DNA of 11,552 nt. It comes from a virus. The stretch lies in the UHGV virus genome UHGV-1585826; one strand, given 5' to 3'. The stretch's first letter is position 1, and the number at the start of each line of letters is the position of its first letter. This document shows, piece after piece, positions 11,004-11,490 of this stretch. Under the pieces are notes generated by a model. That model did no database searches. It was not told the origin of the DNA and saw only the letters and a list, made by a program, of their open reading frames with translations. Made by a program: the position numbers and the translations under genes.

Positions 11004-11279
11004 ATGTTTAATGAAGAAAAAGTTGCGCAAATGGCAGCGTATTTGCTGAAAAAGCATGGCGGATCTATGCGTTTCATTAAGCTGATGAAGCTGATGTATC
11101 TCTCTGACCGCAAAGCAATGGAGTCTTTAACCGGGAAGGGGAGAGGTTTGAATGCTCCCCACAATTCCCCGGCATCAAATCTCCATGCAGGTGAACTATT
11201 TTACCCCCAGCGGCAAATCGCAAAAACAATCAGTGCGATCGAAATGGCAGCCACTACAATTGCAAATGCTTCAGGCTAG
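11004..11279 (+). CDS. Small hypothetical protein (91 aa) with Panacea/DUF4065-like N-terminus; possibly truncated or degraded
   Basis: ATG 11004, stop TAG 11277-11279; weak purine-rich SD (GAGAG about 7 nt upstream). The N-terminal 45 residues (VAQMAAYLLKKHGGSMRFIKLMKLMYLSDRKAM...TGKG) fit the pattern I recall for DUF4065/Panacea-domain proteins (KLxKLxYxxDR). The C-terminal half does not, and the ORF is shorter than I would expect for that family. Confidence 0.5.
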   Translation: MFNEEKVAQMAAYLLKKHGGSMRFIKLMKLMYLSDRKAMESLTGKGRGLNAPHNSPASNLHAGELFYPQRQIAKTISAIEMAATTIANASG

Positions 11280-11280
11280 G

Positions 11281-11490
11281 TCATTGGCGTACCTCCTTCG
11301 GCGGTTCTGGTAGCGGCATCCAGAACAAGGCATTCCCTAACCACGATAAAGTGCCGTCGCTCAACTCCACGTATTCCCCTTTTACCTGTCCTGCCATATA
11401 CTCGCCGTGCTTTGAATAAATTAAAATCCAATCATCTTGAGCGGGCATTCGCGCACTACAGCTTATCCAACCATCCGGAGTTACCGGCAC
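11281..11490 (-). CDS. DUF551-like small phage protein; start uncertain, frame stays open to the window edge at 11552
   Basis: Stop TGA (complement of 11281-11283). The translation ends ...GNALFWMPLPEPPKEVRQ, and the WMPLPEPP C-terminus plus upstream W-I-S and DWILIY pattern match my recollection of DUF551 prophage proteins. The first in-frame start is GTG at 11490 with no convincing SD, and no stop occurs upstream through 11552, so the true start may lie beyond the window. Confidence 0.6.
   Translation of the reverse strand: MPVTPDGWISCSARMPAQDDWILIYSKHGEYMAGQVKGEYVELSDGTLSWLGNALFWMPLPEPPKEVRQ

Follow-up and report, generated by a model that had tools for sequence, protein, structure and literature searches.

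A truncated panA reading frame next to a prophage DUF551 gene as the probable scar of a cassette deletion

Introduction

Panacea domains are promiscuous neutralisers that are often borne by prophages, and the pairing of a Panacea protein (PanA) with a MazF/PemK-like toxin (PanT) has been validated experimentally in P. moraviensis (PMC8832971). DUF551 is a domain without known function (PMC10834534). Sequences related to both domains meet in the stretch of DNA analysed here, a window of 11,552 nucleotides from the virus genome UHGV-1585826, to which all window positions refer. The original prediction described a convergent pair of small genes at 11004-11490, a truncated Panacea-like ORF on the + strand and a DUF551-like gene on the - strand, and viewed them as a recombination junction or a compact accessory island.

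The analysis presented below leads to a different description of the + strand ORF. With a probability of about 0.9, it is an accidental chimeric frame, the pseudogene scar left by the deletion of a toxin-antitoxin cassette. Its stop codon is tied to a second, hidden ORF on the opposite strand, which appears to belong to a family of small membrane peptides.

Genomic context of the locus

Ahead of the locus of the 91-codon ORF, the window contains a portal gene, represented by its 3' part, as well as a fusion ORF and a giant gene for a polyvalent protein (2529-10880; 2,783 aa, with LPD38, LPD5, LPD1 and MuF_C domains). From 4990 to 11552 the window is 99.985% identical to the ynfG-integrated prophage of the E. 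coli O104:H4 clone of the 2011 outbreak (L024; NZ_CP027394.1 463000-512500). The nearest phage records are those of Shigella phages 75/02 Stx and POCJ13, with 97-98% identity. The O104:H4 prophage has a 933W-like organisation, including an N4-gp56-type capsid, Q and a nanS-like esterase, and no stx gene is annotated in it. It carries further toxin-antitoxin genes of the RelE/ParE, Doc, HokD and Hok/Gef types.

Compared with this prophage the window lacks about 14.6 kb, reaching from the major capsid gene to the tail fibre, cor, lom and hok genes. The junction of this gap lies at 2342-2351, has a CGGGTA microhomology and creates an in-frame fusion ORF (1345-2460); window positions 1-2351 correspond to L024 17350-15000, and positions 2342-2765 to L024 424-1. 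The junction is absent from complete E. coli genomes and either reflects a prophage that is defective or arose as an artefact of the assembly.

A hairpin with a 10 bp stem and a GGAA loop is located at 10888-10911, 8 nt past the stop codon of the giant gene. It is stable (dG -20.5 kcal/mol, z -5.1), conserved in 933W and devoid of a U tract, and may serve as a 3'-end stabiliser or weak terminator of the late transcript. A scan of 10700-11552 gave no promoter-like sites, and the terminator scan of the same region gave two weak matches, both within the panA remnant and close to the shuffle expectation. As originally proposed, the locus marks a boundary, at which the rightward late region meets the leftward accessory genes. 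Past 11552 the O104:H4 prophage contains only the DUF551 gene, Ea22 fragments, a DUF4752 gene, a TraR/DksA-like gene and Ant, followed by the host gene ynfF. An adjacent, co-oriented toxin gene is absent both from the window and from this part of the prophage, so that the search for a partner toxin beyond 11552 ended negatively there. The expectation of defence or anti-defence genes at the locus was not borne out either: none survives, and PADLOC returned a blank result.

Truncation of a panA gene by an 864-bp deletion

The + strand ORF is present as described, extending from an ATG at 11004 to a TAG at 11277-11279 (11004-11279, 91 codons), and is labelled 'hypothetical protein' in RefSeq (WP_000481378.1). 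Its length is unremarkable, because the window lists 43 ORFs of at least 60 aa, mostly spurious frames within the giant gene. The 91-aa sequence has no match in Pfam even at E<=10, including the Panacea profile PF13274, and none in NCBIfam or PADLOC; its first 40 residues have no Pfam match at E<=1. A PHROG search returned self-type families only (PHROG 3658).

The database homologues of the ORF form two groups. The first consists of near-identical length variants of 51, 60, 63, 88, 91 and 103 aa. Members of the second group have MFNEEKVAQMAAYLLKKHGGSMRFIKLMYLSDRKAME in common with the ORF, continue with LYGFPISGD... and carry PF13274; the 183-aa PanA allele of phage PhiR5_2, for example, matches this profile at E 2.8e-19 over residues 25-136. 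The relation between window and full-length genes is seen most clearly in contig L016, which was reached via P0007. In L016 the end of the giant gene is followed by a 186-aa PanA (PF13274), a 133-aa ORF, the middle segment of the window and the - strand genes. In blastn alignments, window 10701-11124 is 97.6% identical to L016 40-463, and window 11124-11487 is 91.8% identical to L016 1328-1691. The final base shared by the window and full-length panA genes is 11124; alignment to full-length homologues, as suggested in the original prediction, thus locates the breakpoint. At the junction (11124/11125), which shows a 1-nt microhomology (T), 864 bp have been lost relative to L016. The deletion took PanA codons 41-186, the entire 133-aa partner gene, of predicted MazF fold, and 17 nt past its stop codon.

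The panA remnant in the window (11004-11124, + strand) comprises 40 codons and one base. Since the Panacea domain covers residues 25-136 and the window stops at residue 40, at most ~16 of its ~113 positions are left, and a complete domain is not encoded. Kinship with the Panacea family is evident from descent, as 11004-11124 is nearly identical to the 5' end of PF13274-bearing genes (the 186-aa allele of L016 and the 183-aa alleles of PhiR5_2 and G1/2), but not from a match to the PF13274 profile. The predicted Panacea N-terminus is therefore upheld by ancestry and not by the profile search: the feature is a descendant fragment of the family and not a profile-defined member.

Downstream of the breakpoint lies a spacer of 76 nt (11125-11200), collinear with L016 1328-1404 on the 3' side of the 133-aa gene. 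In the undeleted state this spacer separates the putative toxin gene from the converging - strand operon. It is present in only 43 of 5,426 complete E. coli genomes, all of which have this same junction, and before L016 was found, blastn of phages and E. coli genomes and short-word blastn of loci for another origin of the spacer yielded the same junction allele only. A hairpin in the spacer was considered and dismissed, being imperfect and not significant (z -1.4 and -1.7). The 91-codon ORF consequently consists of 40 PanA codons, ~25 formerly intergenic codons and ~26 codons that are antisense to a - strand ORF. The statement that its C-terminal half is foreign to the Panacea family is correct, as everything past 11124 is spacer and antisense DNA.

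The lost partner gene

In L016 the 133-aa ORF begins 5 nt after the 186-aa panA. Its homologues are always found directly 3' of a SocA_Panacea gene, in L016 and in nine other loci: seven from Enterobacter, Proteus and a metagenome, in which the two genes overlap by 4 nt, and one each in Yersinia phage YeP2 and a Vibrio phage. The family corresponds to PHROG 19071, and its 98 homologues are all annotated as 'hypothetical'. The protein has no PemK/MazF match in Pfam and is without a Pfam or NCBIfam model; a weak Pfam match to ICMT (E 0.03) falls below the cut-off and was rejected as noise. Profile searches against PDB chain sequences revealed nothing relevant. A structure prediction by AF2 with a 70-sequence alignment gives an SH3-like barrel with the fold of the MazF/Kid/CcdB superfamily, at 7-15% sequence identity to solved MazF, Kid and CcdB chains. 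On the basis of this model the 133-aa protein can be labelled a MazF-fold PanT candidate. The predicted fold and the conserved gene order together suggest that the two lost genes once worked as an active toxin-antitoxin system. The partner toxin that the original prediction had anticipated would then have existed, in the form of the gene of predicted MazF fold that directly follows panA in L016.

Length variation of the + strand frame

The + strand frame is not conserved among relatives of more than 98% identity, and near-identical relatives have versions of 51, 60, 63, 66, 88, 91 and 103 aa. The length of the ORF is set by a slippage-prone C run at 11157-11160, which is C4 in the window and C5 in most relatives. 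A 9-bp tandem unit, AAGCTGATG (Lys-Leu-Met), is present in two copies in the window (11079-11096, + strand), in O104:H4 and in the intact gene of L016, in one copy in 75/02 Stx, PhiR5_2 and G1/2, and in three copies in strain cM8a; an A run at 11222-11226 is a third slippage site. Slippage at the C run, the A run and the 9-bp unit leads to products of 60, 63, 66, 88 and 91 aa that differ in their C-termini.

The exact 91-aa protein occurs on 508 contigs. The 63-aa form is commoner, with at least 1000 contigs, and also prevails in IMG/VR (8 versus 4 for the 91-aa form); the C4 form is found mainly within the O104:H4 clone. Full-length homologues of 91 aa, which according to the original prediction would indicate an intact small gene, do exist, but they represent one deletion allele in nearly identical copies. 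There is no evidence for selection on the 91-aa frame, the relatives being too alike for a direct measure. Since the ATG, a weak ribosome-binding motif (GAGAG) and the upstream region are all retained, a peptide may still be made from the ORF. We infer that the panA remnant is without function, and its product, if any, is expected to be a non-functional peptide.

A hidden 27-codon ORF and the spacing of the stop codons

The stop codons of the two convergent frames are indeed 1 nt apart, as base 11280 alone separates the + strand TAG (11277-11279) from the TGA of the DUF551 gene (11283-11281). The + strand TAG is part of a CTAG palindrome at 11276-11279, where relatives whose small ORF on the - strand is intact have a C instead of the T at 11277. 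A single C-to-T change at 11277 (+) creates both an amber codon on the - strand and the TAG that ends the 91-codon ORF. In L016 and P0007 the site reads CCAG, encoding Trp on the - strand and Gln, with read-through, on the + strand. The stops lie 1 nt apart because one point mutation occurred in CTAG, two codons into a 27-codon ORF that overlaps the end of the DUF551 gene as ATGA. Selection for compact packing is not what set the spacing.

The 27-codon ORF (11201-11284, - strand) is unannotated and encodes a hydrophobic sequence, MT*PEAFAIVVAAISIALIVFAICRWG. Its ATG overlaps the DUF551 TGA, it is preceded by a GGAGG motif, and in the window it is interrupted at codon 3 by the amber (TGG to TAG, 11278-11276). 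Intact homologues of exactly 27 codons are found in, among others, 933W, WGPS2, ArgO145, PhiR49_2, BP-4795, PhiR12_2, phiSTEC1589 and the virulent phage Av-05 (Vequintavirinae). All of these named phages have the start of the ORF within an ATGA that closes the preceding gene, and the ORF is annotated in none of them. The homologues (L006 1501-1584, L007 1503-1586, L010-L015 1201-1284 and L025-L144) have the form MTWPEAF...ICRWG, and the Shine-Dalgarno sequence of the small ORF is contained in the final codons of the genes upstream (QEVNQ).

A pattern scan of IMG/VR found the 27-codon ORF on at least 120 contigs. Among the matches listed there are at least 52 distinct DNA and at least 30 distinct protein sequences, and no internal stop occurs in the 18 unconstrained codons. 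The entropy by codon position in these matches is 0.54/0.28/0.95, and one and the same peptide is encoded by at least 13 different DNA sequences. A Shine-Dalgarno-like motif precedes the ORF in 120 of the 120 matches listed, and in 93 of them the ORF is ATGA-coupled to an upstream ORF of at least 60 codons, mostly ending in ...WMPLPEPPQEVNQ, a DUF551 tail. Pairwise dN/dS values are mostly 0.1-0.5. Judged by these sequence signatures, the 27-codon ORF is a real coding ORF.

The encoded peptide has a single predicted membrane helix, with a mean Kyte-Doolittle hydropathy of 2.0-3.1 over 18 residues. Searches of PHROGs, where the best E was about 0.1, and of NCBIfam and Pfam gave no significant match to it, and a literature search on its sequence motifs found no paper. 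The ORF probably represents a family of membrane peptides of 27 residues and one helix, with the consensus MTWPEAFTTVGIAMAVALVVYSICRWG, that is widespread but has never been annotated. Its members are ATGA-coupled to genes of the DUF551/Ea22 type, both in lambdoid phages and in one virulent phage of the Vequintavirinae, and the window would carry a natural amber knock-out. The amber allele is present on 20 IMG/VR contigs (L145-L164). All of these have the same DUF551 tail, PEPPKEV[R/S]Q, and the sequence downstream occurs in two haplotypes, that of the window and that of phiSTEC1589; a recombination breakpoint must therefore lie inside the 84-nt ORF. This pattern suggests a single origin of the amber allele, followed by recombination.

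The DUF551 gene on the - strand

The - strand frame matches DUF551 (PF04448) at E 1.5e-9, with 39 bits against a cut-off of 22, over profile positions 1-68 of 68. The assignment as DUF551-like is thus confirmed, but not a small gene of 69 aa, as the frame is the tail of a larger gene that is cut by the end of the window. It remains open to the window end (11550), the GTG at 11490 is an internal codon, and of the 167-aa gene only the final 90 codons fall within the window (11281-11552), where the TGA occupies 11283-11281. A complete 69-aa gene is accordingly not present. The gene is a CDS of 504 bp (167 aa) in the identical O104:H4 prophage (L005 6292-6795) and in 75/02 Stx. For the complete 167-aa homologue the score is 36.6 bits, and the domain occupies residues 105-163.

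Decay of the cassette in related phages

The slot directly 3' of the 2,783-aa polyvalent-protein gene, the position of the putative ancestral PanA-PanT cassette, is also occupied by a non-functional remnant of the same cassette in 933W-type Stx phages (933W, VT2-Sakai, Min27 and relatives). In these phages panA is left as 27 5' codons and ~23 out-of-frame 3' codons, and what is left of the candidate toxin gene, annotated as L0135, encodes the N-terminal ~10 residues and residues ~88-124. The remnant (L002 4154-4502 / L007 245-593) thus comprises a 31-aa stub (PHROG 28947) and the 62-aa L0135 (PHROG 1925). By this comparison, L0135 of 933W is an internally deleted fragment of a PanT-like gene of predicted MazF fold, and the panA upstream of it is internally deleted and frameshifted, with the 27 5' codons followed by a 3' segment, AATVMANSIYEQNNLDMLLGDLM*. 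The first 27 codons are identical in the window and in the 933W-type stub. The subsequent events differ, however: the 933W type has internal deletions in both genes, followed by YgiW-like and hok/sok cargo, whereas the window has one 864-bp deletion and no cargo. The two decays are independent events, and the cassette has been destroyed independently at least twice, differently each time.

Phage PhiR5_2 and E. coli G1/2 keep PanA alone in the slot directly after the giant gene (L003 3001-3552 and L008 3515-4066). Codon 9 of their panA is a TAA, and the annotated gene begins at Met10; no toxin gene lies downstream, and convergent IbrB/IbrA genes come next. The cassette allele is intact in none of the 5,426 complete E. 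coli genomes, of which 176 contain remnants, and intact copies are present in draft assemblies. A toxin without antitoxin is seen in none of the four decay or retention states, a small sample, and the absence of this state fits the logic of a toxin-antitoxin pair.

Discussion

The evidence can be combined into a history of the locus. In the ancestral state, kept in L016, the giant gene would have been followed by panA (186 aa) and the 133-aa gene of predicted MazF/Kid/CcdB fold, together forming a PanA-PanT type II module. This cassette would have converged on a leftward operon with Ant, DksA-like, DUF4752, Ea22-like and DUF551 genes and the ATGA-coupled 27-codon membrane ORF. A single 864-bp deletion at a 1-nt microhomology would then have fused panA codon 40 to the spacer 3' of the toxin gene. 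Antitoxin function and toxin would have been lost together, presumably the only way to drop such an antitoxin without cell death. The leftover ATG frame now runs across non-coding DNA and then through the antisense of the 27-codon ORF, and its TAG mirrors the codon-3 amber on the other strand. Later slippage in the C run and the 9-bp repeat changes the length of the ORF freely. In this history, which draws on the homology to full-length genes, the breakpoint, the variability of the frame, the fold predicted for the deleted partner protein and the signs of coding in the 27-codon ORF, the locus is very probably a decayed junction and not a functional gene pair. The terms 'pair of small genes' and 'compact accessory island' do not suit a deletion scar next to a gene of 167 aa.

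The mosaic nature of lambdoid accessory regions raises the possibility that the junction arose by modular recombination, homologous or illegitimate, which brought in a foreign DUF551 accessory island. The lower identity to L016 on the right side (91.8%) than on the left (97.6%) would agree with such an exchange, as would the two downstream haplotypes of the amber allele, which place recombination inside the small ORF. Both flanks, however, are collinear with one and the same contig without change of order or orientation, the gap between them is exactly 864 bp with a 1-nt microhomology, and the spacer is the natural 3' flank of the putative toxin gene in that contig. A foreign exchange is thus unlikely. 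That a junction has truncated a Panacea-type gene, as was originally proposed, holds true; the junction is a simple internal deletion.

Two further explanations ascribe a function to the truncated ORF. It could be a real new small protein, in which the N-terminal helix of PanA has acquired a new C-terminus and is kept for, e.g., binding of a host or phage partner. The ATG and the panA upstream region have been kept, the protein is annotated in RefSeq and has its own PHROG, and the exact sequence occurs on 508 contigs; its abundance, though, mirrors the heavy sequencing of the O104:H4 clone, and in most other carriers a 1-nt change in the C run results in a product of 60-66 aa with another C-terminus. 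Moreover, the final 26 codons lie opposite an ORF that is under purifying selection, the stop codon derives from a mutation that is explained by the other strand, and no family or structure match exists, which makes a new protein very unlikely. Even less credible is a residual role as an orphan or minimal Panacea antitoxin, or as a decoy in anti-defence, against a toxin encoded elsewhere. The promiscuity of Panacea domains and their frequency in prophages (PMC8832971) and the PanA-only alleles of PhiR5_2 and G1/2 in the same slot lend it some appeal, but with ~16 of ~113 domain positions left, PF13274 silent at E<=10, and the remainder of the frame unrelated and variable by frameshift, hardly anything of an antitoxin remains.

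As the scar of a deletion, the 91-codon ORF should be treated as a pseudogene, a case of ordinary gene decay, and should not be listed among candidates for defence or anti-defence; the 'hypothetical protein' entries in RefSeq for the 91-aa and 63-aa forms are annotation noise. Relatives of Stx phages appear to have once carried a cassette of PanA and a protein of predicted MazF fold at the end of the late region, and the long-standing orphan gene L0135 of 933W would be a fragment of a MazF-fold toxin candidate. New in this analysis are the label of predicted MazF fold for PHROG 19071 and L0135 of 933W, and the 27-codon ORF family. None of the annotations inspected includes this conserved and ATGA-coupled membrane ORF 3' of DUF551-type genes. 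If the 27-residue peptide is a real effector, e.g. one that acts on the membrane to modulate lysogeny, superinfection or host physiology, it would constitute a new family of phage micro-proteins in the 'ea' dark matter of Stx phages.

Comparison with known systems

The 27-codon ORF resembles Hok/Gef-type toxins in that it specifies a small hydrophobic peptide at the end of an accessory operon of temperate phages. It has, however, no sequence similarity to Hok, and its predicted control is by ATGA coupling and not by an antisense RNA. The DUF551 gene of the window is similar to those of the lambdoid early-left accessory proteins of the 'ea', exo-xis type (Ea22 variant V2, P22 EaA and YfdS), with a C-terminal DUF551 ending in ...WMPLPEPP. 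As in lambdoid 'ea' regions, it is located in a leftward operon with Ea22-like, DksA-like and Ant genes. Its N-terminal part of 100 residues, in contrast, is not the coiled coil of Ea22.

The closest described counterparts of the ancestral cassette are the PanA-PanT type II modules (Kurata et al. 2022, PMC8832971), above all the pair from P. moraviensis with its MazF/PemK-like PanT. Like these modules, the cassette of L016, YeP2 and others is bicistronic and prophage-borne, and combines a PanA of ~186 aa with a small protein of predicted MazF fold. The N-terminus of the cassette PanA, MFNEEKVAQ, moreover resembles the MIFSEQKVAQ that was added to P. moraviensis PanA (PMC8832971). The window, in contrast, retains 40 panA codons and no toxin, and thus represents the scar of such a cassette rather than a module.
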